Below, one piece after another: positions 1,440-28,265 of a stretch of 31,306 bases of DNA. The number at the start of each line of letters is the position of its first letter. Within the stretch, counting starts at the first letter, position 1. Under the pieces are notes generated by a model. That model was not told the origin of the DNA, did no database searches, and saw only the letters and a program-made list of their open reading frames with translations. Position numbers and translations under genes: made by a program. The stretch comes from a virus (lineage: Duplodnaviria; Heunggongvirae; Uroviricota; Caudoviricetes): IMG/VR virus record IMGVR_UViG_2585427737_000015. The stretch is one strand, 5' to 3'.

Positions 1440-1446
1440 CCGTTTC

Positions 1447-1533
1447 GCTGAAAAACATAACCCATAAAATGCTAGCTGTACCAGGAACCACCTCCTTAGC
1501 CTGTGTAATCTCCCTTACACGGGCTTATTTTTT
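1447..1533 (+). ncRNA. cyaR: CyaR (RyeE) Hfq-dependent small RNA
   Basis: Sequence GCTGAAAAACATAACCCATAAAATGCTAGCTGTACCAGGAACCACCTCCTTAGCCTGTGTAATCTCCCTTACACGGGCTTATTTTTT matches remembered E. coli CyaR; ends in a stem-loop plus U-tract. Confidence 0.85.
1507..1533. other. Prophage attachment-site core (attL or attR): 27-bp P2 att core AATCTCCCTTACACGGGCTTATTTTTT
   Basis: Exact reverse complement of the P2 core AAAAAATAAGCCCGTGTAAGGGAGATT as I recall it; lies at the 3' end of cyaR immediately before phage gene ogr, as expected for ogr-att-int topology. Confidence 0.75.
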
Positions 1534-6512: not shown

Positions 6513-7031
6513 TCACAGGCCGATATTGCGGCGGTGTTGCTCCAGCCGGTCGACGCCGTTCACCTTCTCAATCATGTTGATGGTGTCGATTTCGACCAGC
6601 TCCTTACCGTCCATCGTCAGCCGGAAATAGGTGCAGACCACGGAGATTTTCGACTCGGTGTCTTCTCCCTGTTTACCCTCGCCGGTGTCGATTTCTTTCT
6701 GACGTCCACGCATGACCACCTCGACGGCCACCGTTTCGCCGGTATCGTCGCGCTGGTAAGAGCCTGCAAAACGAATCGGGACGGCATCCACGCCGGTTGC
6801 GGCGTAAAGCTCCCAGATAACCGAATCCGGGAAGCCACCGAGCGACCACTCCATTGACAGCGCATCGTCATCAAGGCCGAGGTCTACCGGTGCGCTGCCG
6901 TTCATTCCCGCACCGCGATAGTTTTCGAGCTTACGGGTCAGTTTTGGCAGCGTGACGGACTTTGCAACGCCCTGATAGCTGTAGCCGTTCAGAAAGACGT
7001 TCATTAACTTGAGTTTGCGCGGCATTGCCAT
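6513..7031 (-). CDS. FII: Tail tube protein gpFII (172 aa)
   Basis: ORF track; P2 length and position. Confidence 0.85.
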   Translation of the reverse strand: MAMPRKLKLMNVFLNGYSYQGVAKSVTLPKLTRKLENYRGAGMNGSAPVDLGLDDDALSMEWSLGGFPDSVIWELYAATGVDAVPIRFAGSYQRDDTGETVAVEVVMRGRQKEIDTGEGKQGEDTESKISVVCTYFRLTMDGKELVEIDTINMIEKVNGVDRLEQHRRNIGL

Positions 7032-7043
7032 CGGTCAGGCTCC

Positions 7044-8234
7044 TTAATTGCTGTTAACCGAAGTGACCAGATTTGCCAGGTATTTATCGGTAATACGCTG
7101 GCGCAGGGTCAGGTTTTCGAGAGGAGGCACCGGTGTATAGTCGTAGTCGATATACAGTTTTCCGGCCTTGAGGGTTTCCGCATCGTTGGATTCTTCGCTG
7201 AACCAGCAGGTCGCATCCACGATATAGCCGTTTGTTTTCAGCTCACGGAATTTGGCATTGATGCCGTCAACGATGTCGCGAATCAGCGTTGCGGTGATGG
7301 GCTTGTCCACCGCCCACATGTGCGCCTCAGCCATCGTGTCGGCCAGCACCTGCGCGGTGCGGGTGTAGTTTTCAAAGAGGAACAGCGGGTCATCAGAGCA
7401 GGTACGGTTACCCCAGAAGCGGAAACCGTCACGGCGAATCAGCGTTGTGACGCCTGACTCATTCAGCAGGTCAGCATCGGTGCCGGACTCCTGCAAATCC
7501 CAGAATACAGATGCGCTGATGCCGGTAACACCGTTCACCCCGACGTTGGACAGCGTTTTATGCCAGCCCTGCTCCTGGTCGATTCTGGCACGCAGACCCA
7601 GCGCACGGGCGGTGGCATACGCGGTGGCGGTGGTACTGGCAACCGTATCCCATGCGAGGAAATCCGGCCAGATGACCATCAGCTCACGCTGGCTGAAATT
7701 CTGACGGTAGGCTTTCACCTCGGAAATGGTCTTACAGCCCCATGCGCTGATATATCCGAAAGCGCGCAGCTTCTGACAGACTGATGCCAGTGCAACAGCC
7801 ACCTCTTTGGTATCCAGCCCCGGCACACCAAGAATACGCGGTTTAACACCGGTTACCGACTCCGCCGCCAGCAGGGCTTTCAGTCCGGTGTACTGACCGT
7901 TTTCGTCAGTGGTGCCGATGATATTGGAAACGGTCTGCGCGAGTTTCGTTTCTTCGTCGTCGCCGGTGCCGTCTTCCACACGCACGACAACGGTGACCGG
8001 TTTTGACTGGTCAGCGATGGCCTGCAACGACGCCGCCAGCGTGCCTTTTTTACCGGCCTTTGCAATTGCGCTCTGCACATTGGTAATCAGCACAGGTTTA
8101 TTGAGGGGAAAGGTTTCCGCATCCGCATCGCTGGCCGTGCAGACCATGCCGACAATGGCAGTGGATACGGTGGAAATGACGCGGGTGCCGTCGTTAATCT
8201 CCAGCACCTGCACGCCGTGATGATAGTCACTCAT
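7044..8234 (-). CDS. FI: Contractile tail sheath protein gpFI (396 aa)
   Basis: ORF track; P2 length and position. Confidence 0.88.
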   Translation of the reverse strand: MSDYHHGVQVLEINDGTRVISTVSTAIVGMVCTASDADAETFPLNKPVLITNVQSAIAKAGKKGTLAASLQAIADQSKPVTVVVRVEDGTGDDEETKLAQTVSNIIGTTDENGQYTGLKALLAAESVTGVKPRILGVPGLDTKEVAVALASVCQKLRAFGYISAWGCKTISEVKAYRQNFSQRELMVIWPDFLAWDTVASTTATAYATARALGLRARIDQEQGWHKTLSNVGVNGVTGISASVFWDLQESGTDADLLNESGVTTLIRRDGFRFWGNRTCSDDPLFLFENYTRTAQVLADTMAEAHMWAVDKPITATLIRDIVDGINAKFRELKTNGYIVDATCWFSEESNDAETLKAGKLYIDYDYTPVPPLENLTLRQRITDKYLANLVTSVNSN

Positions 8235-8339
8235 CCGTTTAACTCCGTGGTTAATGGGTGCAACTATTTTCTGTTGTGCAGAGCATGAGACGCTATTTGA
8301 CCTGGCTGGTCAGGGGATGAAACAACAGATAAAGAAAAT

Positions 8340-8356
8340 GCGGGCAATTCGCCCGC
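8340..8356 (-). terminator. Candidate rho-independent terminator between the cargo protease gene and FI
   Basis: Hairpin GCGGGC-GAATT-GCCCGC (8340-8356) followed on the minus strand by a U-rich tract (plus-strand AAAGAAAAT 8331-8339). Confidence 0.35.
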
Positions 8357-8831
8357 CTGTCCTGATTTGTACTCACTCATTTTCCGCCTGACAATTTACA
8401 TAGCCCAAATGCTATCAAATCTGACAGTCTGCTTTGAGCGAAGAGCGGACTTGAGACTATTGTAAATGAAAACCATATAATTTTAACCGGCAGAAACACA
8501 TGAGTAATTTTAAGGCTAATTAGTTATCTGGGAGATGAGGGGCAAAGCACGATATCGTACACCAATGGAATAAGCTTATGATTAATATAAATATAAAAGG
8601 CAGAAAGCCTTCCTCAAAATGGCTTGAATCGGGTGCATCTGTCTGCGAAACGATTTTTTAGACGTTTTTATCGCTTTCAGTTCAGTTTTCCCCTCGAATC
8701 CAAGTGACAAAGCCGATTTAGTTTTCACACATCCGTACAATGTGCATCCCTCGATGAGCCTTTTCAGGCAAAGTTACGGGGATGCTTGATTCATTTAAAC
8801 TGAGTTAGTACAACTTAATTAATAATATCAT

Positions 8832-9824
8832 TTATGCTAGAGTTGAATATTCTCCATTTCCTCGGTCGGTGAGTGTTAATTCGCGGCCATTTTCTGTAAA
8901 TGTAATGGCATCCAGCAGGCTTTTTCCTGTTACAGCTATACCATATCCAAGGTTATCAATCTTTGAACTGTCCTCAGATGATATTGGTATTTGTACAAGC
9001 ATACCAACAACAAAGCCGTATTTGTTAATTATAGGGCCACCGCTATTCCCCCCCTTAACCCTAGCATTGAATAATAAAAAGTCTTGTGAATCTAAGTAAG
9101 AGTGACCAGAACCAACAATTCGCCCCTTTGACAGTCGGACAAACGAATTTATATGCGAAACGTCATATAACTTTAATGCATCAAATCCTGGAATGGGTGG
9201 AAATCCTATTGATAAAATTTCATCCAGTACCGAGGCTTTGGTTGAGACCTTAAGTGGTTGAATATTATCTTCATTCGGAATGGTTGTGAAAACTAAAGCG
9301 ATATCAATACGTTCATCGTTAGATACAAAGATTTTATGTATTGGTAAAGCCTCACCACCAGCTCTAAGTATCCTGATACTCTTCATGTCTTCAATAACAT
9401 GTCTGGCTGTAAATATCGTGTGGTTATTCCCAACAATAAAACTAGTACCAAGATCATGTGAACCATCACTTTTTTCAACAACAACAGGTAAAACGGAAGG
9501 ACTAAGGCGGTCTATGATTGACTCAAATCCATCAGCTATAAAATCATACTTTCCATATTTCGCATCTGATTCATTGAAATTCGGTGCGAAATAGCAACGG
9601 TCCAAAAGAGTATGTCCTGAAGATAATTCCATTAAAATACCTTCAGTTGCTAGCTTTTCACAATTGCGTATTAACTTCATCATATCGAGAGTATTTTCCC
9701 ACTCAGGTTTGAGACGGGTCAGGCTCTCAATTGTTTTTCTCTCTTTTACGTTATCGTTTTCCGGTTTGTCATAAAAATATTTCACTATTTCTGTTGGTGT
9801 TACATATGTTTTTTTTATAGTCAT
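8832..9824 (-). CDS. Cargo gene at the P2 Z/fun locus: N-terminal domain of unknown function fused to a trypsin-like (chymotrypsin-fold, S1/Trypsin_2-type) serine protease domain; 330 aa from ATG, 348 aa if the upstream GTG is used
   Basis: ORF 8832..9878. Motifs GTSFIVGNNHTIFTARHV (His160), ERIDIALVF (Asp192), VKGGNSGGPI (Ser279), track numbering, with triad spacing typical of DegP-like proteases. No Shine-Dalgarno before the GTG at 9878; a weak one before the ATG at 9824. AT-rich relative to the flanking phage genes. Confidence 0.7.
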   Translation of the reverse strand: MTIKKTYVTPTEIVKYFYDKPENDNVKERKTIESLTRLKPEWENTLDMMKLIRNCEKLATEGILMELSSGHTLLDRCYFAPNFNESDAKYGKYDFIADGFESIIDRLSPSVLPVVVEKSDGSHDLGTSFIVGNNHTIFTARHVIEDMKSIRILRAGGEALPIHKIFVSNDERIDIALVFTTIPNEDNIQPLKVSTKASVLDEILSIGFPPIPGFDALKLYDVSHINSFVRLSKGRIVGSGHSYLDSQDFLLFNARVKGGNSGGPIINKYGFVVGMLVQIPISSEDSSKIDNLGYGIAVTGKSLLDAITFTENGRELTLTDRGNGEYSTLA

Positions 9825-10217
9825 TTTTGTACCCGCGATGACGTTATTCCATATATTTTTCTTTGTAGAAAATATCACTATTGCTGGTAAATGTTAAGTT
9901 CAGTGCTCGCACTAAAGCTGGATGATCAACGTCGCCCTCGTATGGAAATCAGGTAAGATTCATGTCTACTTGGGGTCTAGGGTAGACAGCATAAAAACGT
10001 ACGATAGCGTTCGATTGGCTCTCCCCCCCGCCTATAAACCATGAGGTTGATAGGGTAGTATCGTTAGGCAATAGTATACATGTAAGTATCCAACCTAATT
10101 GGTCTTGAGATTTCTAACTAACGTGTCGTTATGTCCGCTCCTGGCACAGAGCGGACTGTCAGATTAGGCTTTACTCTGTTCTATAGGTATGTAAGCTCAC
10201 ACAAGAGTTCATACAAC

Positions 10218-10745
10218 TTATTGCGGCATTTCCGGCCATTCAGGATTTGCAGGATCCACACGACTGATCAGAACGCTGTAGCGTTCCCATGATTCCAGTC
10301 GGCTACGCTCCTCATCTGTTGCCATGTTCAGTCTGACCGCGCGCTCCAGCGGCAAAATCACGGATTCAGCATCTGCAAGAAGTCTGGCTTTCCGAATTTC
10401 TGCCTGCTGCTGTAATTCCTCTGCCGTATAAATGCGTTTAATCACTTTGCCGTCCTTAAACATCCAGTTCCCTGAAATGTCCGCCCGTCGGTTAGCAGTA
10501 ATATCCGCCACTTCAACAACACTTAATCCATCCGGTCTGATAGCTGTCACATCCTTTTCCACATAGTGGATGATATTATCTTTGTCGTACGCTATTTTTA
10601 TCGTGTCATCAGCAAAATACTTTTGTTCTTCGTACCAGTTCTTACCATCTTCTGAAAAAAACCAGACAACATCAAAGTCCTTTGTCAATTGATATTGTTC
10701 AACCGTTTTTGGATTACCCGCCGTAATATTTTTTAAATGCTGCAT
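10218..10745 (-). CDS. G: Tail fibre assembly protein gpG (175 aa)
   Basis: ORF track; P2 length; directly downstream of H. Confidence 0.8.
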
Positions 10746-10748
10746 AAA

Positions 10749-12998
10749 TTATACCTGCGCCACGTTATACCATGTCCCGTTAATGTATTTCTGCACCGGT
10801 CTGTAATATACGCCACCAATGTTATCGGCAGAGTTTGAGCCGGTATCCTGAACAATAATGCCGGTATATACGCAACCTGACGGAGCCTGATGCGTCCATG
10901 TAGTACCATTATTTGCTGGTTTATATGTAGATGCACCGCCCAGCCGCATGTCTCTCACATAACGTGAATCTGACTCAGTTTTGGTGTATGCACCAACATC
11001 TCCCGCTGAGGGTTTATGAGCAGTTGTATATAGTTGCGCCCATCCAGACCAGTTAGCATCTGTGGTATCTCGTCGGGAACGAATATATGCCGGAGCATGA
11101 GCACCGCTGGTTCCACTCCAGCCAATAAGTAACTCACCCTCTCCTACTGCGGTTACGCCAGTGAGATGAAGCACATTACCATAGGCTGTTGGGTAGCCAT
11201 TGTTGTATGCCTCATACATCTGAATACCTGGTGTCCCCTTTACGCTCCCACCTAATGCATTAACACGGTTTCTGGATACCAGTGTATTAATATTTATATC
11301 GGCAGAGCCATCAAATCTGACACCATTAATATTTCTTGCGTTCGCTAACTTCGTTGCTGTTGCAGCATTTCCTGAAAGGCTGGAAATAAATGGATGTGAA
11401 CAGTAATAACCACGTCCATTTTTAAAATCCAGAATAGCCTGTGCGTTCGTGCTTTCTGTAGCGGGATTAGTTGCCCCCCACTTATATGTCGTTTGACCGA
11501 CGACATAATCCTCTGTCGGAACAATAACCGTTAGCCCTTCCTCTGCAAGAATTTGTACAGGGAAAGCTCTGGCTTCAACATAAAAAACACTACATACATC
11601 ATCATCTTTCAGGCTTGTAACAATGGAATGGATTGAACGCTCATTAGTCTGATACGTCCAGAAATAACCTGCCGCATATGAACCACGATCAGTCCAGCCT
11701 CCGGGCATAACCATGCCATTAAACTCGCAGTTATTCATTACATAATCGCCGTTATAACAACCAGTGGAAATAACAACGCGGGATGCCATTTCTCCTGAAA
11801 GGCTGGCAGCACGGCGAAAGATAACGGGGTACCACTTCCCGGCAACGACATTTGCAGGGGCTGCAAACGAATACTTTCGCATTCCCTTTTTCTTATCCAC
11901 TTCACCTTTGCTGTAAACATTAATGTTACTCAGGAAGCGTTCTTTATCAGGGATATCCGCACCGTTCTGATCTTTCTGAAGACGTTTTTCAGCATTGTCA
12001 TAGGCAGACTTCACCGCCTTTGGCGTTGCAGCCTGCGTTTCAGAATCACTGTTGGTGGCGCTACTGAGCTGGACAAGACCTTTTCGCGCCGTGGTGGCAT
12101 CCTGTGCAGTGTATTTCCCGTTAGCAAGGTCATATGCTGTCTTAACCGCCTTTGGCGTTGCCGCAAGCGTTTCAGAATCGCTGTTGGTGGCGCTACTGAG
12201 CTGAACAAGGCCTTTTCGCGCTGTTGTGGCATCCTGTGCAGTGTATTTCCCGTTAGCAAGGTCATATGCTGCCTTTACCGCTTTCGGCGTTGCGGCGAGC
12301 GTTTCAGACGTGCTGTTAGTCGCACTACTGAGCTGAACAAGGCCTTTTCGCGCGGTGGTAGCGTCCTGTGCGGTATATTTCCCGTTAGCAAGGTCATATG
12401 CGGCCTTAACCGCCTTTGGCGTTGCAGCCAGTGTTTCAGACGTGCTGTTGGTCGCACTGCTTAACTGAGTAAAACCTTTTGCGGTCAGCGAGGCGTCAGG
12501 GTGACGTCGTGACTGTTCATGTTCTGCAATTTTGTCATCAACGTAATCCTGCGTTGCCATCACCGTTGTGGTGTCAATGGTCAGCTCCACTGAGGCCACA
12601 CTGCTGACGATGATGACCATGCGGCAGGTCTGCGAACGCCCTGAGCCTTCGGCAAGGGCTGGCTTATAACTTTCGGCCATGTTCGCCACGGCAATTAACG
12701 TTCCAGCATCATCGTACAGGCCAAGCTCACGCATCCAGAAACCGCCCACCTCCGGCGGAATAACCAGCTCTGCGATAATATAATTACTGTTTCGTTTGTC
12801 CTGACTGATTTTGTTCAGCGCATGTCGCCAGACTTCGTGGATAAGCCCGGTCTGTCCGGCATCCGGGACAGGCAATTTACCACCGCCATCCCCGACGGCC
12901 ATCGTGGTAATGTTGACCTTCCGCCCTCCCGGCGCGGTTGCCGCTGCCAGCTTTGCTGCACCGGCAGTAGTGATAACGGTTTTGAATTTTGTGCTCAT
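10749..12998 (-). CDS. H: Tail fibre protein gpH (749 aa) with four tandem 44-aa repeats
   Basis: ORF track; N-terminus MSTKFKTVITTAGAAKLAAA is P2 H-like; longer than P2 H because of the repeat expansion and a different C-terminal receptor-binding region. Confidence 0.85.
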   Translation of the reverse strand: MSTKFKTVITTAGAAKLAAATAPGGRKVNITTMAVGDGGGKLPVPDAGQTGLIHEVWRHALNKISQDKRNSNYIIAELVIPPEVGGFWMRELGLYDDAGTLIAVANMAESYKPALAEGSGRSQTCRMVIIVSSVASVELTIDTTTVMATQDYVDDKIAEHEQSRRHPDASLTAKGFTQLSSATNSTSETLAATPKAVKAAYDLANGKYTAQDATTARKGLVQLSSATNSTSETLAATPKAVKAAYDLANGKYTAQDATTARKGLVQLSSATNSDSETLAATPKAVKTAYDLANGKYTAQDATTARKGLVQLSSATNSDSETQAATPKAVKSAYDNAEKRLQKDQNGADIPDKERFLSNINVYSKGEVDKKKGMRKYSFAAPANVVAGKWYPVIFRRAASLSGEMASRVVISTGCYNGDYVMNNCEFNGMVMPGGWTDRGSYAAGYFWTYQTNERSIHSIVTSLKDDDVCSVFYVEARAFPVQILAEEGLTVIVPTEDYVVGQTTYKWGATNPATESTNAQAILDFKNGRGYYCSHPFISSLSGNAATATKLANARNINGVRFDGSADININTLVSRNRVNALGGSVKGTPGIQMYEAYNNGYPTAYGNVLHLTGVTAVGEGELLIGWSGTSGAHAPAYIRSRRDTTDANWSGWAQLYTTAHKPSAGDVGAYTKTESDSRYVRDMRLGGASTYKPANNGTTWTHQAPSGCVYTGIIVQDTGSNSADNIGGVYYRPVQKYINGTWYNVAQV
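11964..12464 (-). repeat. Four near-identical tandem 132-bp (44-codon) repeats inside gene H
   Basis: Protein repeat LSSATNS[TD]SET[LQ]AATPKAVK[ATS]AYDLANGKYTAQDATTARKGLVQ x4 starting near residue 179. Nucleotide repeats visible (GTTAGCAAGGTCATATGC recurs about every 132 bp). Boundaries approximate. Confidence 0.8.
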
Positions 12999-14444: not shown

Positions 14445-14792
14445 TCAACTCACAGGGATGGTTAACGAAAGTGGCTGGCCGGTGTCGTTGTGCTGGCCGG
14501 TTAACGTGACCGTCATTCGCCCGTCAAAACTGCGCTCAGTGGTGACGGATGACAGGGTGACGCGGGGTTCCCATTTCAGCACCGCCATGTAACAGGCGAC
14601 CTTAATCTGCAACTCAAGCGCCGGGGTCTGCGGCTGGTCAATCATTGACGCCAGCAAGGAGCCGTAATCACGACGCATCACCCGTGAGCCGACTGGTGTG
14701 CGCAGGATATCGCCGATACTCTGGCTGATATGCTCGAGGTCAGTGACCGTCAGGCCATCACTGCGATTCATTCCGAGATAACGCGCTGTCAT
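14445..14792 (-). CDS. W: Baseplate protein gpW (115 aa)
   Basis: ORF track; P2 length and order. Confidence 0.85.
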   Translation of the reverse strand: MTARYLGMNRSDGLTVTDLEHISQSIGDILRTPVGSRVMRRDYGSLLASMIDQPQTPALELQIKVACYMAVLKWEPRVTLSSVTTERSFDGRMTVTLTGQHNDTGQPLSLTIPVS

Positions 14793-15424
14793 AGAGGACT
14801 CCCGGTTGTGCCGCCGCTGTCGCCGGGGTGTTTATGGGTATGCAGTACCTTACCGTTTGATGAGAGTTCACCGCCGGTGTGTTCAATGTTGCCGCGCATC
14901 GTCCCGCCCTTCTGCACTTCCAGCGTGCCGGTAATCAGCCTGTTGGTGCAGACCACCTCCGGGGTGTCCAGGGTGACGCGGGTTGATGCTTTCACCATGA
15001 CCACCGGCACCGTGGCAGTAACAGAATCAGAAGCCGTCACGCTGGCCGTTTTAATTCCGCTTACCGTGAGTGCACTGGTTTCGGGTTCATATTCAATCAC
15101 CGCCCCGTCAGGGAAACGGATATGCAGGGCATCCGCCGACACAGACGGCGAGGGGTTATCGCCGGAATAAATCCCCGGCAGAACGAACGCCGTGTCGAGT
15201 TCACCACCCACGGCCAGAATCAGCACCTGTTCCCCCACGGAAGGTGCCCACCATGTGCGCGAACGTCCTGCGCGATGGGTCAGCCACTGAAGCCAGTCGG
15301 TGCACATGCCGCCGGTCTGCACGCGGCAGCGACCGGCGTTAAGGTCGGTTTCGACGATAATGCCGGTGCGAATCATGTTGCGCAGTGCGCGCGCGAGTTC
15401 CTGAATATTTGCGAGAGTGTTCAT
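14789..15424 (-). CDS. V: Baseplate spike protein gpV (211 aa)
   Basis: ORF 14789..15442; start moved to the internal ATG (MNTLANIQELARAL...) to match the 211-aa P2 gpV; overlaps W by 4 nt. Confidence 0.8.
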   Translation of the reverse strand: MNTLANIQELARALRNMIRTGIIVETDLNAGRCRVQTGGMCTDWLQWLTHRAGRSRTWWAPSVGEQVLILAVGGELDTAFVLPGIYSGDNPSPSVSADALHIRFPDGAVIEYEPETSALTVSGIKTASVTASDSVTATVPVVMVKASTRVTLDTPEVVCTNRLITGTLEVQKGGTMRGNIEHTGGELSSNGKVLHTHKHPGDSGGTTGSPL

Positions 15425-15507
15425 GCGTGTGAGATTGCACAATATATAAAAGTTATGCTATCTGGATTCATTTGTAGAACTACCAGACAACATTCAAGGA
15501 GAGCGTA

Positions 15508-16293
15508 ATGGTCAGCTATAATGTGACTAATGTGTGGGGGCTAATCGTTTTTTTCCTTTGTAGCTTTGCAGTATTAGCATTTTTTAGCTTTGGTAAAAGT
15601 AACCTTATGAGGCTTATTGCACATTATTTCAATTTTGGATATTCAGACAAAAAATTAAAAAGACTTGACCGCGAGTGGCGCGACATTCAACTATTTAAAA
15701 TAATTAACGGAATCAATGTATCAGGCATTGAAAATGTGAGAATGATACAGCAGGGACTGATTGATGGAAAACTAAAAACATCGTATTTTTTCCTTACTCG
15801 CATCTGGGGTGACATAACAAAACCACCACACATAATTAAAACAACAATTGTAATTCTGGCCAGTATTATTTATATTCTCTTCGCATGTTATATACACAAC
15901 AAACAATCCGCTATAGTAAGAGATGCCATAGGCATACCATATAAAAATATGATGTACTATGTTTATAGTGACAAAGTTCTTTTATCCTTCAAAAATAAAG
16001 CAGTTGAATTTAATAAAACTTATAGCCTTGCCGATTGCAAGAGACTGCAAAACGTATTTATAAAAGACACACTTCCTGAAATCGCCTGCAATAAGCTCTT
16101 ACAGCTAAACGAGGAGGACTCCGAATGGTTAAGCCAGGAGATTAAAGATAATAACAGTCACAAAAAAGCATTATTAATACTATCCCTCGTCTATTTCACT
16201 TCAGGTCTGGTTATATTCCTGTCATATACAAAATTCTTTTACGCCAATAAGAAGGTTTTAGAATACAAAGCATCAAATAAAAATCACTCATAA
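15508..16293 (+). CDS. Cargo gene at the P2 orf30 locus: AT-rich predicted integral membrane protein (261 aa, about 3 transmembrane segments), function unknown
   Basis: ORF track; Shine-Dalgarno AGGAG 8 nt before the ATG; hydrophobic stretches at about residues 9-29, 113-133 and 221-241; opposite strand to the flanking late genes; low G+C by eye. Confidence 0.65.
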   Translation: MVSYNVTNVWGLIVFFLCSFAVLAFFSFGKSNLMRLIAHYFNFGYSDKKLKRLDREWRDIQLFKIINGINVSGIENVRMIQQGLIDGKLKTSYFFLTRIWGDITKPPHIIKTTIVILASIIYILFACYIHNKQSAIVRDAIGIPYKNMMYYVYSDKVLLSFKNKAVEFNKTYSLADCKRLQNVFIKDTLPEIACNKLLQLNEEDSEWLSQEIKDNNSHKKALLILSLVYFTSGLVIFLSYTKFFYANKKVLEYKASNKNHS

Positions 16294-22738: not shown

Positions 22739-24511
22739 ATGACCATCACCACAGACACCACTCTTTTACACGACCCGCGTCGTCAGGCGGCGCTGCTGTA
22801 CTGGCAGGGATTTTCCGTGCCGCAGATTGCCGCCATGTTGCAGATGAAACGCCCGACGGTGCAGAGCTGGAAACAGCGCGACGGCTGGGACAGCGTTGCC
22901 CCCATCAGCCGTGTCGAAATGAGCCTGGAAGCGCGGCTGACCCAGCTCATCATCAAACCGCAGAAAACCGGCGGTGACTTCAAGGAAATTGACCTGCTGG
23001 GACGCCAGATTGAACGACTGGCACGGGTAAATCGCTACAGCCAGACCGGCAACGAGGCAGACCTTAATCCGAACGTCGCTAACCGCAACAAAGGCGGGCG
23101 TCGCAAACCGAAAAAGAATTTTTTCAGTGACGAAGCCATCGAAAAGCTGGAGCAGATTTTCTTTGAGCAGTCTTTCGACTATCAGTTGCACTGGTATCGC
23201 GCCGGGCTTGAGCACCGCATCCGCGATATCCTGAAATCCCGCCAGATTGGCGCGACGTTTTATTTTTCCCGCGAGGCGCTGCTGCGCGCCCTGAAAACCG
23301 GCCATAACCAGATTTTTCTGTCGGCCAGTAAAACGCAGGCGTATGTGTTCCGTGAATACATCATCGCCTTTGCCCGGCTGGTTGACGTTGACCTGACCGG
23401 TGACCCGATTGTCCTGGGCAATAACGGCGCAAAACTGATTTTTCTCGGCACCAACTCCAACACCGCGCAGAGCCATAACGGCGACCTGTACGTCGATGAG
23501 ATTTTCTGGATCCCGAATTTTCAGGTACTGCGTAAGGTGGCATCAGGTATGGCCTCACAGAGTCACCTGCGCTCGACCTATTTCTCCACCCCGTCCACGC
23601 TGGCGCACGACGCCTACCCGTTCTGGTCGGGTGAACTGTTCAACCGGGGACGCGCCAGCGCCGCCGAACGCGTGGAAATCGACGTCAGTCATAACGCCCT
23701 TGCCGGAGGTCTTCTCTGTGCGGACGGCCAGTGGCGGCAGATTGTCACCATTGAGGACGCCCTGAAAGGTGGCTGCACGCTGTTCGACATTGAGCAGCTC
23801 AAACGTGAAAACAGCGCCGACGATTTTAAAAACCTGTTCATGTGTGAATTTGTTGACGACAAGGCGTCAGTGTTCCCGTTCGAGGAGCTGCAACGCTGCA
23901 TGGTCGACACGCTGGAAGAATGGGAAGACTATGCGCCGTTTGCCGCCAATCCGTTCGGCTCCCGCCCGGTATGGATTGGTTACGACCCGTCACACCGTGG
24001 CGACAGCGCCGGATGCGTGGTGCTGGCACCGCCGGTGGTGGCCGGTGGCAAATTCAGAATACTTGAGCGTCACCAGTGGAAAGGCATGGATTTTGCCACT
24101 CAGGCGGAATCCATCCGCAAACTCACCGAAAAATACAACGTCGAATACATCGGTATTGATGCCACCGGCCTCGGTGTCGGCGTGTTCCAGCTCGTGCGCT
24201 CGTTCTATCCCGCCGCGCGCGATATCCGCTACACGCCGGAAATGAAAACCGCAATGGTGCTCAAGGCAAAAGACGTTATTCGCCGTGGCTGTCTGGAATA
24301 CGACGTCAGCGCCACCGACATCACCAGCTCGTTTATGGCTATCCGCAAGACCATGACCAGCAGCGGACGCAGCGCCACCTATGAGGCCAGCCGCAGCGAG
24401 GAAGCCAGCCACGCCGACCTCGCATGGGCGACCATGCACGCTCTGTTAAATGAGCCACTCACCGCCGGTATCAGCACCCCGCTGACATCCACCATTCTGG
24501 AGTTTTACTGA
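22739..24511 (+). CDS. P: Terminase ATPase (large) subunit gpP (590 aa)
   Basis: ORF 22709..24511; start placed at MTITTDTTLLHDPRRQAALLYWQG to give the 590-aa P2 length. Confidence 0.88.
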   Translation: MTITTDTTLLHDPRRQAALLYWQGFSVPQIAAMLQMKRPTVQSWKQRDGWDSVAPISRVEMSLEARLTQLIIKPQKTGGDFKEIDLLGRQIERLARVNRYSQTGNEADLNPNVANRNKGGRRKPKKNFFSDEAIEKLEQIFFEQSFDYQLHWYRAGLEHRIRDILKSRQIGATFYFSREALLRALKTGHNQIFLSASKTQAYVFREYIIAFARLVDVDLTGDPIVLGNNGAKLIFLGTNSNTAQSHNGDLYVDEIFWIPNFQVLRKVASGMASQSHLRSTYFSTPSTLAHDAYPFWSGELFNRGRASAAERVEIDVSHNALAGGLLCADGQWRQIVTIEDALKGGCTLFDIEQLKRENSADDFKNLFMCEFVDDKASVFPFEELQRCMVDTLEEWEDYAPFAANPFGSRPVWIGYDPSHRGDSAGCVVLAPPVVAGGKFRILERHQWKGMDFATQAESIRKLTEKYNVEYIGIDATGLGVGVFQLVRSFYPAARDIRYTPEMKTAMVLKAKDVIRRGCLEYDVSATDITSSFMAIRKTMTSSGRSATYEASRSEEASHADLAWATMHALLNEPLTAGISTPLTSTILEFY

Positions 24512-25545
24512 TGAGCAAGAAAAAAGGGAAAACACCGCAACCTGCGGCAAAAACAATGACCGCCAGCGCCCCGAAAATGGAAGCATTCACCTTTGGTGAG
24601 CCGGTGCCGGTACTCGACCGCCGTGACATTCTGGATTACGTCGAGTGCATCAGTAACGGCAGATGGTATGAGCCACCGATCAGCTTTACCGGTCTGGCAA
24701 AAAGCCTGCGTGCTGCCGTGCATCACAGCTCACCGATTTACGTTAAACGCAATATTCTGGCCTCGACATTTATCCCGCATCCGTGGCTTTCCCAGCAGGA
24801 TTTCAGCCGCTTTGTGCTGGATTTTCTGGTGTTCGGTAATGCGTTTCTGGAAAAGCGTTACAGTACCACCGGTAAGGTCATCAGACTGGAAACCTCACCG
24901 GCAAAATATCCCCGCCGTGGCGTGGAGGAGGATGTTTACTGGTGGGTGCCGTCCTTCAACGAGCCGACACCTTTCACGCCCGGCTCCGTGTTTCATCTGC
25001 TGGAGCCGGATATTAATCAGGAGCTGTACGGCCTGCCGGAATATCTCAGCGCCCTTAACTCTGCCTGGCTGAATGAGTCAGCCACGCTGTTCCGCCGCAA
25101 GTATTACGAAAACGGCGCACATGCCGGATACATCATGTACGTCACTGATGCCGTGCAGGATCGCAACGATATCGAAATGCTCCGCGAAAACATGGTGAAG
25201 TCGAAAGGCCGCAACAACTTTAAAAATCTGTTTCTCTATGCCCCGCAAGGGAAAGCCGACGGCATTAAAATTATCCCGCTCAGTGAAGTGGCAACGAAGG
25301 ACGATTTTTTTAATATCAAAAAAGCCAGCGCCGCAGACCTGCTGGACGCGCACCGCATCCCTTTTCAGTTGATGGGCGGCAAGCCGGAGAACGTCGGGTC
25401 GCTGGGTGATATTGAGAAAGTGGCAAAGGTCTTTGTCCGCAATGAGCTTATCCCGTTACAGGACAGGATCCGCGAGATAAACGGCTGGCTCGGTCAGGAG
25501 GTCATCCGCTTTAAAAACTACTCACTGGACACTGACAACGGCTGA
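24511..25545 (+). CDS. Q: Portal protein gpQ (344 aa)
   Basis: ORF track; P2 length; TGATG overlap with the P stop. Confidence 0.88.
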   Translation: MSKKKGKTPQPAAKTMTASAPKMEAFTFGEPVPVLDRRDILDYVECISNGRWYEPPISFTGLAKSLRAAVHHSSPIYVKRNILASTFIPHPWLSQQDFSRFVLDFLVFGNAFLEKRYSTTGKVIRLETSPAKYPRRGVEEDVYWWVPSFNEPTPFTPGSVFHLLEPDINQELYGLPEYLSALNSAWLNESATLFRRKYYENGAHAGYIMYVTDAVQDRNDIEMLRENMVKSKGRNNFKNLFLYAPQGKADGIKIIPLSEVATKDDFFNIKKASAADLLDAHRIPFQLMGGKPENVGSLGDIEKVAKVFVRNELIPLQDRIREINGWLGQEVIRFKNYSLDTDNG

Positions 25546-26048: not shown

Positions 26049-28265
26049 ATGGAACTTAGATTAAAAAATGTTACCAGTTATAAGAAAGACGCCTTCACAA
26101 TACTGAATCTTGAAAAAAGAGTAAACATACTATACGGCCAAAATGGTTGTGGCAAATCTACCATTTCAAATTATTTCTACGACTCTACACACACAGATTA
26201 TAACGAGTGTGAATGTACCCTTCTTGACAATTACAAACCTCTTGTTTACAACACTAAATTTATTGAAGATAATTTCTACAATGCACAGGAACAAAAAGGT
26301 GTTTTTACATTAAGTAAAGAAAATGCAGATATTGAAAAACAATTAATTAAAAAAGAAGCAATTAAACAGCAACTTACAGAGCAATATAGACAAAAAAAAG
26401 GAGTGTTATTGAAATTAGAAGCAGAAATGGAAAAAAAAGAAAATGAATACATCGAATCGATCTGGAAAAAAACAGAACCAATCAGAAACTCTGTACTAAA
26501 AATCTTAATGAAAGGTAAAGTTGGCTATAAAAGACCTTTTTTTGAGATGATAAAATCATCCTCACCAATCACCTTTATTAATTTAAATGATATAGCAAAA
26601 GAATACTCTATACTATTAGAAAATAGAAACAATGAAACCGCATTAATAACTCCTTTACACCCATATACCCCATCAATTGATGATGTAAATACATTAGCAA
26701 CACCTATAATAGATACAAGCAATAGCTATTTATCAGAAACCATTAATAAACTTCATAATCTTGACTGGGTAAAAAAAGGTAAAGAACATTATTTAGACGG
26801 TTCTACATGTCCGTTTTGTCAGGAAAAAACTATTAGTCGCGAATTTTTAAATGCCCTTAAATCAATATTTGACGAAAGTTATTCAAAGAAAGTAAAACAG
26901 CTCTCAGATATAAAGTCAGTTTATGAGAAAAATACCATATATCATTTTAACGAAATACAAAACAATATATCATCATGTGCACTAATCAATGAGAAAGATA
27001 AAGAGATCATTATTTCCAATATTAAAATATTGCAAAACATTGCAGAAAAAAATTTAATAAACATTATTGATAAGATCAACAATCCATCAACATGCGTTAC
27101 ATTAGAAATTGATAAAGAACTAGAAAATCATGTTCAGGAAAGCATAGACGCTGTTAACAAAAAAATAAGAGACATAAATGATAAGGTTAAAAAACTCAAA
27201 GAGTATGAGAATAAAATCGGAAAACAAGTTTGGGGGGCTCTCCATGCTTTTTGCAGCGATGATTTAGAGAATTTATCCAAACACAAAGAAAAATTCTTTG
27301 ATATCAAAAAGAAAGTTCATGATGAATTAAATAATATTGAGCAACAAGGAAAAGAAAATAATCTCACAATAAAAGCATTGCGAGATAAAATATCTAACAT
27401 TGATTCTACGATAGACTCAATAAACACCCATTTAAAAAATCTAGGGATCTCTGGTTTTTGTATTGAAAAACATGCAGAAAGAAAAGATATGTACATTATA
27501 TCTCGACCAGGGCATACAAAAAACCAAAATGTTTATAGATCTCTTAGCGAAGGTGAAAAAACACTAATAACGTTTCTTTATTTTTTAGAGTGCTGTAAAG
27601 GTAAAACCGATAAAAATGATACCGATAGCAGGGATATTTTTATTGTTATTGACGATCCAATATCTAGTCTATCGCAAAACTATGTCTACGACATCGCATC
27701 AATTATTCATCACCACATTATAAAAAATGAATTAACAAAGAAGGTATTAATCCTTACTCACAATCTTTATTTCTTTCATGAACTTATTAAGCTATCTCCT
27801 AAAAGCAGAGAAGACAAACTATTTAAGAAAAACTATTATCTAGGTAGAGTAACGAAAAATGATTTTAGTATAATTACTGAAATACAAAAAAACAGCATAC
27901 AGAATGAATATCAATCTTTGTGGCAAATATTAAAAGATGCAAAAGATGGCAAAGCAAACAAAATCATAATACCTAATATTATGAGAAACATACTAGAATA
28001 TTATTTTGCATTTGTTCATAGAACAGATGCTCTACAAGATGAATTAACAAAGTTGGCACGCGACGATAGCAACAGTGATTTCAAAGCATTCTACAGATAC
28101 ATTAACAGAGGTTCTCACTCTGATGCGGTAAATATTACTGATATGGGCGACATAGACCCAGATAAATACCTAAAACAATTGAGAACAATATTTTCAGCTA
28201 CTGGTGACGAAATGCATTATTTAAAAATGATGGACGAACTAGAAGAGGAGAACGTTACCGCTTAG
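26049..28265 (+). CDS. Cargo gene at the P2 tin/old locus: 738-aa ABC/SMC-type ATPase with coiled-coil insert and CxxC zinc-hook-like motif plus a C-terminal putative nuclease domain; RloC/PrrC-like (AAA_13-type) candidate anticodon nuclease
   Basis: ORF track; Shine-Dalgarno GAGG before the ATG. Walker A ILYGQNGCGKST (aa 27-38), CPFCQ (aa 254-258) within Lys/Glu-rich coiled-coil sequence, signature-like LSEGEK (499-504), Walker B IFIVIDDP (530-537), LTHN (569-572), and C-terminal R646-x3-E650 ... H690 resembling the PrrC Arg-Glu-His triad. Strongly AT-rich by eye. Confidence 0.6.
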   Translation: MELRLKNVTSYKKDAFTILNLEKRVNILYGQNGCGKSTISNYFYDSTHTDYNECECTLLDNYKPLVYNTKFIEDNFYNAQEQKGVFTLSKENADIEKQLIKKEAIKQQLTEQYRQKKGVLLKLEAEMEKKENEYIESIWKKTEPIRNSVLKILMKGKVGYKRPFFEMIKSSSPITFINLNDIAKEYSILLENRNNETALITPLHPYTPSIDDVNTLATPIIDTSNSYLSETINKLHNLDWVKKGKEHYLDGSTCPFCQEKTISREFLNALKSIFDESYSKKVKQLSDIKSVYEKNTIYHFNEIQNNISSCALINEKDKEIIISNIKILQNIAEKNLINIIDKINNPSTCVTLEIDKELENHVQESIDAVNKKIRDINDKVKKLKEYENKIGKQVWGALHAFCSDDLENLSKHKEKFFDIKKKVHDELNNIEQQGKENNLTIKALRDKISNIDSTIDSINTHLKNLGISGFCIEKHAERKDMYIISRPGHTKNQNVYRSLSEGEKTLITFLYFLECCKGKTDKNDTDSRDIFIVIDDPISSLSQNYVYDIASIIHHHIIKNELTKKVLILTHNLYFFHELIKLSPKSREDKLFKKNYYLGRVTKNDFSIITEIQKNSIQNEYQSLWQILKDAKDGKANKIIIPNIMRNILEYYFAFVHRTDALQDELTKLARDDSNSDFKAFYRYINRGSHSDAVNITDMGDIDPDKYLKQLRTIFSATGDEMHYLKMMDELEEENVTA

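Follow-up and report, generated by a model that had tools for sequence, protein, structure and literature searches.

A lone HtrA-like serine protease gene in the Z/fun slot of an Escherichia coli P2-like prophage, a candidate single-gene anti-phage system

We analyzed a 31,306-nt stretch of viral DNA (IMG/VR record IMGVR_UViG_2585427737_000015, Caudoviricetes), hereafter the window, which is an Escherichia coli P2-like prophage with its late genes on the minus strand and adjoins the gene of the small RNA (sRNA) CyaR. This work deals with the slot at 8235-10217, which has the tail sheath gene (FI) on one side and the gene for tail-fibre assembly (G) on the other. A first-pass annotation, made from the sequence alone, had identified this as the Z/fun slot of P2, occupied by a lone AT-rich gene for a trypsin-like serine protease of roughly 330 residues, and had proposed the gene as a single-gene anti-phage system. 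The features of the slot are given below, with the basis of each in brackets.

7044-8234, minus strand: tail sheath gene FI (Pfam Phage_sheath).
8340-8356, minus strand: strong terminator-like hairpin, GCGGGCGAATTGCCCGC with a T-run; its site, between FI and the slot, belongs to the conserved backbone (consensus scan).
8418-8450, unstranded: inverted-repeat arm on the side of FI, which forms a hairpin of its own (GTCTGCT...AGCGGAC) adjacent to AATCTGACA (repeat search).
8451-10132, unstranded: variable cargo segment of the slot (ends of backbone homology).
8595-8613, minus strand: weak terminator-like hairpin about 220 nt past the protease stop (consensus scan only).
8832-9824, minus strand: protease gene, 330 amino acids (aa), winged-helix-like plus S1 (HtrA-like) domains, stop codon at 8832-8834 (open reading frame, RefSeq, Pfam).
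8835-9482, minus strand: protease domain, residues 115-330, predicted chymotrypsin fold (Foldseek, family profile, alignment, model).
9042-9044, minus strand: codon of the catalytic S261 in GGNSGGP (alignment).
9303-9305, minus strand: codon of the catalytic D174 in DIALVF (alignment).
9399-9401, minus strand: codon of the catalytic H142 in TARHV (alignment).
9483-9824, minus strand: N-terminal domain, residues 1-114, predicted winged-helix-like core and helical linker (AlphaFold2 model).
9869-9897, minus strand: sigma-70-like promoter, TTAACA and TATTTT with a 17-nt spacer and an upstream TG, some 45 nt ahead of the ATG (consensus match only).
10133-10165, unstranded: G-side arm of the inverted repeat, GTCCGCTC-CTGGCACA-GAGCGGAC, then TGTCAGATT (repeat search).
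10218-10745, minus strand: tail-fibre assembly gene G (Pfam Caudo_TAP).

One long open reading frame (ORF) lies between FI and G and no further credible ORF was found within 8235-10217, so the protease gene is indeed alone in the slot. It is also clearly AT-rich, as the GC content is 0.37-0.38 across 8500-10000 compared to 0.55-0.58 on both sides. The ORF extends over 8832-9878 if a GTG start is used and over 8832-9824 from an ATG. An identical copy in RefSeq (S1 family peptidase WP_000152899.1) supports the ATG, the N-termini of the homologues in an alignment of 47 sequences fit it as well, and in a diverged copy on Klebsiella plasmids a 1-nt indel upstream of the ATG disrupts the GTG frame. 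We therefore used the ATG start, which gives a product of 330 aa, as expected from the first-pass annotation. The profile phrog_18002, of unknown function, aligns over the full length of the protein. Comparison with an 84%-identical Klebsiella plasmid copy gave a dN/dS of 0.16 (0.22 in the N-terminal domain and 0.12 in the protease domain), and the sequence comparisons indicate that the gene is under purifying selection and is a real coding gene, far beyond chance. No signal peptide or membrane segment was seen in a hydropathy scan of the protein (maximal Kyte-Doolittle 19-residue mean 1.2), which agrees with the earlier annotation, and the N-terminus, MTIKKTYVTPTEIVKYFYDKPEND, is hydrophilic. 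The protease is accordingly predicted to be soluble and cytoplasmic.

The structure of the protein was modelled with AlphaFold2 on the alignment of 47 sequences (predicted local distance difference test, pLDDT, 86.7; predicted template-modelling score, pTM, 0.86). The catalytic residues H142, D174 and S261 are invariant across the 47 homologues, and the same is true for K257, G258, G259, G262 and P264, with N260 nearly invariant. The complete triad reported previously thus stands, but its residues were given as H160, D192 and S279, numbers that are 18 too high because they were counted from the upstream GTG. The Trypsin_2 profile, which had been suggested as a search, matches residues 126-275 with E = 1.7e-17 and 65 bits against a cut-off of 27.6. 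This was further supported by Foldseek comparison with the PDB, where the protease domains of DegS, DegP, DegQ and HtrA came out on top (E ~3e-14, probability 1.00), and by the family profile, which matched HtrA, DegP, DegS and MarP among PDB sequences (E ~3e-14). A search of a viral structure library returned generic trypsin domains only, with a TM-score of at most 0.5. As judged from alignment and model, the chymotrypsin fold, the His-Asp-Ser order and the G-x-S-G-G motif place the protein in peptidase family S1 (PA clan). In the model the chain continues after the catalytic serine for about 70 residues, with a C-terminal helix and hairpin at 300-327. The loop at 212-227 is conserved in sequence, yet is modelled with very low confidence; it comes after a nearly invariant PPIPGF motif, between Asp174 and Ser261, and we take its position, as an unaligned lead only, to be approximately that of the regulatory loops in HtrA proteases.

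The HtrA proteases (S1C: DegS, DegP/DegQ, MarP) are the best match in both structure and sequence to residues ~115-310, and they share the order of the catalytic residues and the GNSGG-type motif with the protein in the slot. However, HtrA proteases have one or two PDZ domains at the C-terminus, whereas none was found here with Pfam and a winged-helix-like domain is predicted at the N-terminus instead. Furthermore, they carry a signal peptide or membrane anchor and work in the periplasm or otherwise outside the cytoplasm, while the present protein has neither and is predicted to be cytoplasmic, and they are encoded by conserved housekeeping genes in contrast to the mobile cargo gene described here. 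The NCBIfam HtrA models gave partial hits with scores far under their cut-offs (45 bits vs 416). The protease is therefore HtrA-like, but not an HtrA protease sensu stricto.

The N-terminal domain had been described as an unrecognised domain of about 140 aa. It remains without a family, as no Pfam family matched it and DEP was hit in only 1 of 35 members, but its length is about 114 aa and it is not featureless, since a winged-helix-like fold is predicted by the model. The core consists of helices 10-18, 32-45 and 48-60 and a beta hairpin (65-68/77-79), followed by a helical linker at 85-110 that bears a conserved Y90-G91-x-Y93 ... G99-F100 motif. In its predicted fold the domain resembles the PadR/MarR/ArsR regulators; it does not belong to these families by sequence and it has no basic DNA-binding surface. 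Instead it is acidic to neutral (median net charge -2, median isoelectric point 5.7), and because of this a classical DNA-binding role for the winged helix is disfavoured. When a profile of the domain was run against 1.84 billion representative proteins we obtained 161 hits, essentially all of the same size and with the domain at the N-terminus. The domain was never found on another effector, and we therefore regard it as private to the protease family; the idea of a shuffled sensor module was dropped, as the profile hits show this one architecture only. The G-x-S-G-x-P motif is present in 90 of the 96 full-length hits. Six full-length family members (P0153, P0169, P0170, P0203, P0205 and P0212) lack it at the catalytic serine and may be either inactive pseudo-proteases or motif variants.

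In other P2-like prophages the backbone homology ends at ~8449-8464 and restarts at ~10128-10143, and the slot flanks are matched by ~1,800-2,000 E. coli genomes in which homology passes through the inverted repeats from both sides and then stops. The two arms are 33 nt long, 85% complementary and each a hairpin, with two matches in the window vs 0.02 expected. They are kept in P2-like prophages whatever the cargo, and were also present at the loci L071 (2819-2851 and 3985-4017) and L049 (83-115). As part of the conserved backbone the repeats are not a novel find: GenBank AJ512682 (the P2-EC53 Z-region) already marks a left and a right inverted repeat. In a P2 genome the same repeats enclose one unrelated gene, of 299 aa and in the same orientation, which confirms that the FI-G slot is the Z/fun slot. 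The P2 Z/fun cargo and the protease thus share slot, repeats, gene number and orientation, while their sequences are unrelated (best local E = 0.009 over 16 residues). That this slot is a known defence hotspot was likewise correct: the fun locus is the second defence-enriched locus of P2-like phages, with three validated systems in addition to fun (Vassallo et al. 2022, PMC9519451). In P4 hotspots, 6 of 8 tested loci of unknown function gave protection (PMC13586616). Separately, isolated copies of the G-side hairpin (35-41 nt, identity 95-100%) are present at other sites of E. coli chromosomes where no feature is annotated, one example being NZ_CP027310.1 3157971-3158011.

The distribution of the gene shows that it is not confined to this slot. 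The full region was found in 41 of 5,426 complete E. coli genomes, 13 times in the P2 slot and 28 times in an island at tRNA-Thr/proA. Those 13 are to be compared with ~1,800 E. coli genomes having a P2-like FI region, so that <1% of the slots hold the protease. The island cassette, which is non-prophage, corresponds to window positions 8421-10152 with 99.2% identity, and its neighbours are a reverse transcriptase gene, DUF2971 (PDC-S31), a PDC-S64-like gene, DUF4236 and a fragment of a tail-fibre assembly gene. The island has the look of a row of hotspot cassettes that remained when a P2-like element decayed. In the island of E. coli CP66-6 (L002, 5965-6030 and 7713-7736) there are degenerate copies of both hairpins, with a tandem extra hairpin copy adjoining. 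A copy with 86% identity is carried by Klebsiella IncF plasmids, beside an IS3 element and a GNAT/DUF1778 toxin-antitoxin pair. Thus, the protease gene is mobile between prophage, island and plasmid. Beyond these copies the family is rare and patchy across phyla: 5.8 billion proteins yielded 74 clusters, and 185,579 species genomes contained 44 loci, which belong to Opitutia, Nitrospinota, Bacteroidota, Alphaproteobacteria and Cyanobacteria; members also occur in Enterobacteria, Pseudomonas and Nitrospina. Among 2.9 million viral contigs 13 carry the family, 10 of them with this E. coli element or the island cassette, and no full-length homologue was found in 50,697 deposited genomes of phage isolates.

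Located between tail genes, the protease could in principle be a structural or assembly protease that acts in capsid or tail maturation, an outcome that would have spoken against the defence proposal and that we looked for. It did not occur. The prophage encodes its own scaffold/protease gpO (PF05929, E = 1e-109), almost no P2-like phage has the gene and no full-length homologue was found in the phage isolates, P2 has an unrelated gene in the slot, and the protease also occurs outside phages, on plasmids and non-phage islands. For these reasons we do not consider it a morphogenetic protease, and a role of this kind is extremely improbable.

We then considered the neighbourhoods of the homologues. 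Clustering of the neighbours across 47 loci revealed no conserved neighbour, with no family present at more than 4 of the 47. What did recur were defence genes of different kinds. Drt2 directly adjoins one homologue (E = 1e-143), SoFic lies near another (E = 2e-46), HsdR is beside one, and one Pseudomonas copy has HEPN_AbiU2 and DUF4238 on either side, the latter being a domain for which a single-protein system was validated in Rousset 2022. PDC-S15 is found among the homologue neighbours, genes for an integrase, PIN, WYL and DUF4325 lie beside one homologue, and one is situated in a degraded P2-like element together with GAPS4. The 132 flanking genes also include a pAgo with Aga-TIR, AbiEii, Mrr, nSTAND3, HipA and several PDC candidates. 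The recurrence of defence genes near homologues in other phyla is circumstantial support for a role in defence.

Nothing at or around the locus pointed to a partner gene or a partner RNA. A 52-aa ORF at 8582-8740 was rejected, having no family hit and containing the weak terminator-like hairpin. An Rfam scan of 8200-10300 gave nothing, and the Klebsiella plasmid homology covers 9932-8782 only, that is promoter, gene and 50 nt of 3' sequence, so the flanks beyond this segment are not shared. Since neighbours, Rfam, the small ORF and the flanks all gave nothing, the idea of a partner was dropped, in agreement with the first-pass annotation. These results also bear on the proposal that the gene is a selfish addiction or toxin module, which would stabilize its mobile element and not act against phages. 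A precedent is the IetS protease of the plasmid IetAS pair, first described as a plasmid-stabilizing protease/ATPase toxin-antitoxin pair (PMC13069673), and the Klebsiella copy does adjoin a toxin-antitoxin pair. However, no antitoxin-like partner gene is conserved at the 47 loci, there is no conserved non-coding segment past the promoter and the 50 nt of 3' sequence, and a lone constitutive toxin would not be maintainable under the purifying selection that we observed. We regard a toxin module as very improbable.

The protease could not be assigned to any named defence system, as had been the case in the first-pass annotation. The nearest models in PADLOC were RT-Protease_XI (6.7e-13), LmuA (4.1e-10) and HamA1 (1.6e-07), and HtrA models score similarly. 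In Lamassu, Hachiman (HamMAB), Avs and DRT systems, trypsin-like modules activate a partner metallo-beta-lactamase (MBL) pro-nuclease and thereby contribute functionally to immunity (Tuck et al. 2026, PMC12799240). These modules, the nearest PADLOC matches, belong to anti-phage immunity and, like the present gene, are carried on mobile elements, but there the protease is fused to HamA, LmuA, STAND or a reverse transcriptase (RT), whereas here it is joined to the N-terminal domain only, and there the upstream MBL nuclease is the substrate, whereas here the neighbours are FI and G. No MBL family was seen in the inspected Pfam-annotated contexts or among the 25 commonest neighbour families. With neither a core-protein fusion nor an MBL nuclease gene found alongside, membership in these nuclease-protease pairs was rejected. 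At locus L068 the protease gene of one distant homologue (7001-7999, plus strand) is convergent with a gene for an LmuB-like SMC ATPase (8065-10581, minus strand; PADLOC LmuB, E = 6e-29), with a TPR-CHAT protein near. This arrangement recalls a Lamassu system whose effector is a protease; however, the two genes do not share a strand, and they were seen together at this one locus only.

Other candidates were more distant. The PADLOC models PDC-S45 (a single gene) and PDC-M35A match weakly and partially, at residues ~101-152 (E = 6.5e-4 and 3.5e-7, respectively); as these matches span 40-50 residues only they indicate another family, and both candidates are unvalidated according to the labels of the library. 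The "Peptidase + TM" system of Rousset 2022 (pFR104), from the other P2 hotspot, has an HExxH motif, is not trypsin-like and was judged unrelated. Table S5 of the same study (PMC9122126) contains a further Trypsin_2/Trypsin protein, listed as WP_001350593, and places it in another arrangement at a P2 hotspot, namely a hypothetical gene, Trypsin_2, two hypothetical genes and DinI. The protease itself is not described in Rousset 2022, Vassallo 2022, the 2026 Nucleic Acids Research P2/P4 study (main text searched), DefensePredictor 2026, a 2026 domain-centric screen or a 2025 preprint on metagenomic selections.

Taken together, our results show an HtrA-like protease that stands alone, bears a winged-helix-like domain private to its family and matches no named system in PADLOC v2 or in the literature searched, and this combination is new. 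With modest confidence, we favour the interpretation that the protease, as cargo of the prophage, defends the lysogen from infection by other phages. The earlier proposal of an anti-phage system is in this respect reasonable but unproven, and several observations weigh against it. PADLOC-DB v2.0.0 gave partial hits to the protease domain only and no full-length hit, and no phenotype for the protease or any family member is reported in the literature and supplements searched. The tally of defence neighbours consists of raw occurrences with no background rate for comparison, and some homologues lie amid housekeeping genes, for example in Nitrospina watsonii. Moreover, the gene points in the direction of the late operons around it and no T-run follows the hairpin behind G, for which reasons read-through from the V-G operon is plausible and the protease may be co-transcribed late; such late expression may equally well suit a function that benefits the phage.

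This last point leads to a counter-defence protease, made together with the late genes in lytic growth or from other mobile elements, which would degrade immunity proteins of the host or of rivals. Apart from the transcriptional arrangement, the location on mobile elements is compatible with such a role, as anti-defence genes also gather there. On the other hand, a promoter-like block of its own precedes the gene and is conserved: the Klebsiella plasmid copy has the identical -35 block, CTTAACATTTACCAGCA, although the surrounding sequence has diverged. Many homologues are furthermore chromosomal, beside defence genes and with no phage genes near, and the low number of viral contigs together with the lack of hits in isolated phages does not favour a function in lytic growth. 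We judge counter-defence to be distinctly unlikely.

The homologues found amid housekeeping genes are compatible with a gene for lysogenic conversion or host physiology, i.e. a cytoplasmic quality-control or regulatory protease for stress tolerance, fitness or virulence, in a slot that accepts any cargo. Hotspot genes of P2-like phages listed in Rousset 2022 include some of likely non-defence role (partitioning systems, cytolethal distending toxin), and in GenBank AJ512682 the ORF of the P2-EC53 Z-region is labelled 'putative lysogenic conversion protein'. The exact copies of our protease are found mostly in enterotoxigenic (ETEC) and avian pathogenic (APEC) E. coli strains, and HtrA-type proteases are classically quality-control enzymes. 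Nevertheless, the lack of a signal peptide argues against a secreted or periplasmic virulence factor, the family is too sparse and patchy for a housekeeping role, and defence and mobile-element neighbours recur in unrelated phyla. A conversion or physiology gene is on balance unlikely.

If the protease is indeed a defence protein, how might it work? Two known enzymes suggest a model. The Lit protease of e14 mediates abortive infection by cleaving EF-Tu when the Gol peptide of T4 appears, and DegS is activated allosterically by a ligand. Lit is the closest functional analogy, as it is also encoded by a single prophage-borne gene, acts in the cytoplasm and stays silent before the phage product is present; however, Lit is a zinc metalloprotease with known trigger and substrate, whereas the present enzyme is of the serine type and has no homology to Lit. 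The logic would thus be that of Lit and the enzymology that of a ligand-gated HtrA protease. In this model the lysogen would express the protease from the gene's own promoter and keep it inactive, with the winged-helix-like domain holding the enzyme in a resting state and acting as the sensor, a regulatory position filled in DegS by the PDZ domain. Binding of a product of the infecting phage would then order the catalytic loops, and the active protease would cut an essential host or phage protein, by which the infection stops. Because the surface of the N-terminal domain is acidic, the trigger would more likely be a protein than DNA. Going beyond the observed architecture, triad and context, we infer here an anti-phage phenotype, a sensor role, a trigger and a substrate, as well as whether the response is abortive or a direct interference, and for the full mechanistic picture our confidence is lower than for protection as such. 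Possibly, a new family of single-gene abortive-infection systems, represented in at least five phyla, begins with this protease, which would sense a phage product via its private domain and execute the response with no nuclease, NTPase or other partner, and would thus be a ligand-gated "executioner" protease of bacteria; we propose this tentatively, as somewhat short of an even chance.

The window contains further features outside the slot, among them the following.

1445-1530, plus strand: CyaR/RyeE sRNA gene (Rfam, 100.7 bits).
10749-12998, minus strand: tail-fibre gene H, with four tandem units of ~44 aa (LSSATNS[TD]SETLAATPKAVK...), the repeats lying around 12011-12457.
15508-16293, plus strand: 261-aa ORF, 33-40% GC, opposite in strand and flanked by the ORF at 14789-15442 and by those from 16365 onward (RefSeq hypothetical WP_000255498.1).
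26049-28265, plus strand: AAA_13 ATPase, 738 aa, 28% GC, in the other P2 hotspot (PADLOC candidate PDC-S06 over full length, E = 5e-254).

The 738-aa ATPase has a PrrC-like C-terminal part and is a candidate for a second defence gene in the same prophage. Beside it, the ORF at 24511-25545 presumably occupies the portal position, as judged from P2 gene order with no family search. The 261-aa ORF matched neither Pfam nor PADLOC and is probably a further cargo gene; the adjacent ORF at 14789-15442 we take, from P2 gene order and unchecked, to be probably the baseplate gene V. In the segment 28515-31082 there is a 280-aa ORF that matched no family, as well as a 513-aa protein in which rve integrase and Mu-transposase C-terminal domains were recognised, and the early region, where the early and replication genes of P2 are expected, may have been interrupted or replaced by a transposon. 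In a sequence-identical strain gene H is annotated by PGAP as two incomplete pseudogene pieces, while its ORF is intact in the window. The CyaR/RyeE gene lies just outside the apparent ogr/D end of the prophage, as read from gene order, and next to a host gene at 1-1362.

That unknown cargo in the slots of P2-like prophages is defensive is already expected by specialists, and protease-based immunity as hotspot cargo is of a known kind. If it does not protect, the protease is one more uncharacterised cargo gene. If it does, it would be among the simplest known protease-based immune systems, with one 330-residue protein, and in a system this simple both the signal and the substrate of a defence protease would be easy to study. 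It would also mean that a trypsin-like module can be an effector by itself, whereas the modules of Lamassu, Hachiman, Avs and DRT are so far known solely to activate a partner nuclease, and the Z/fun slot of P2-like prophages, which has been less studied, would gain a defined occupant.

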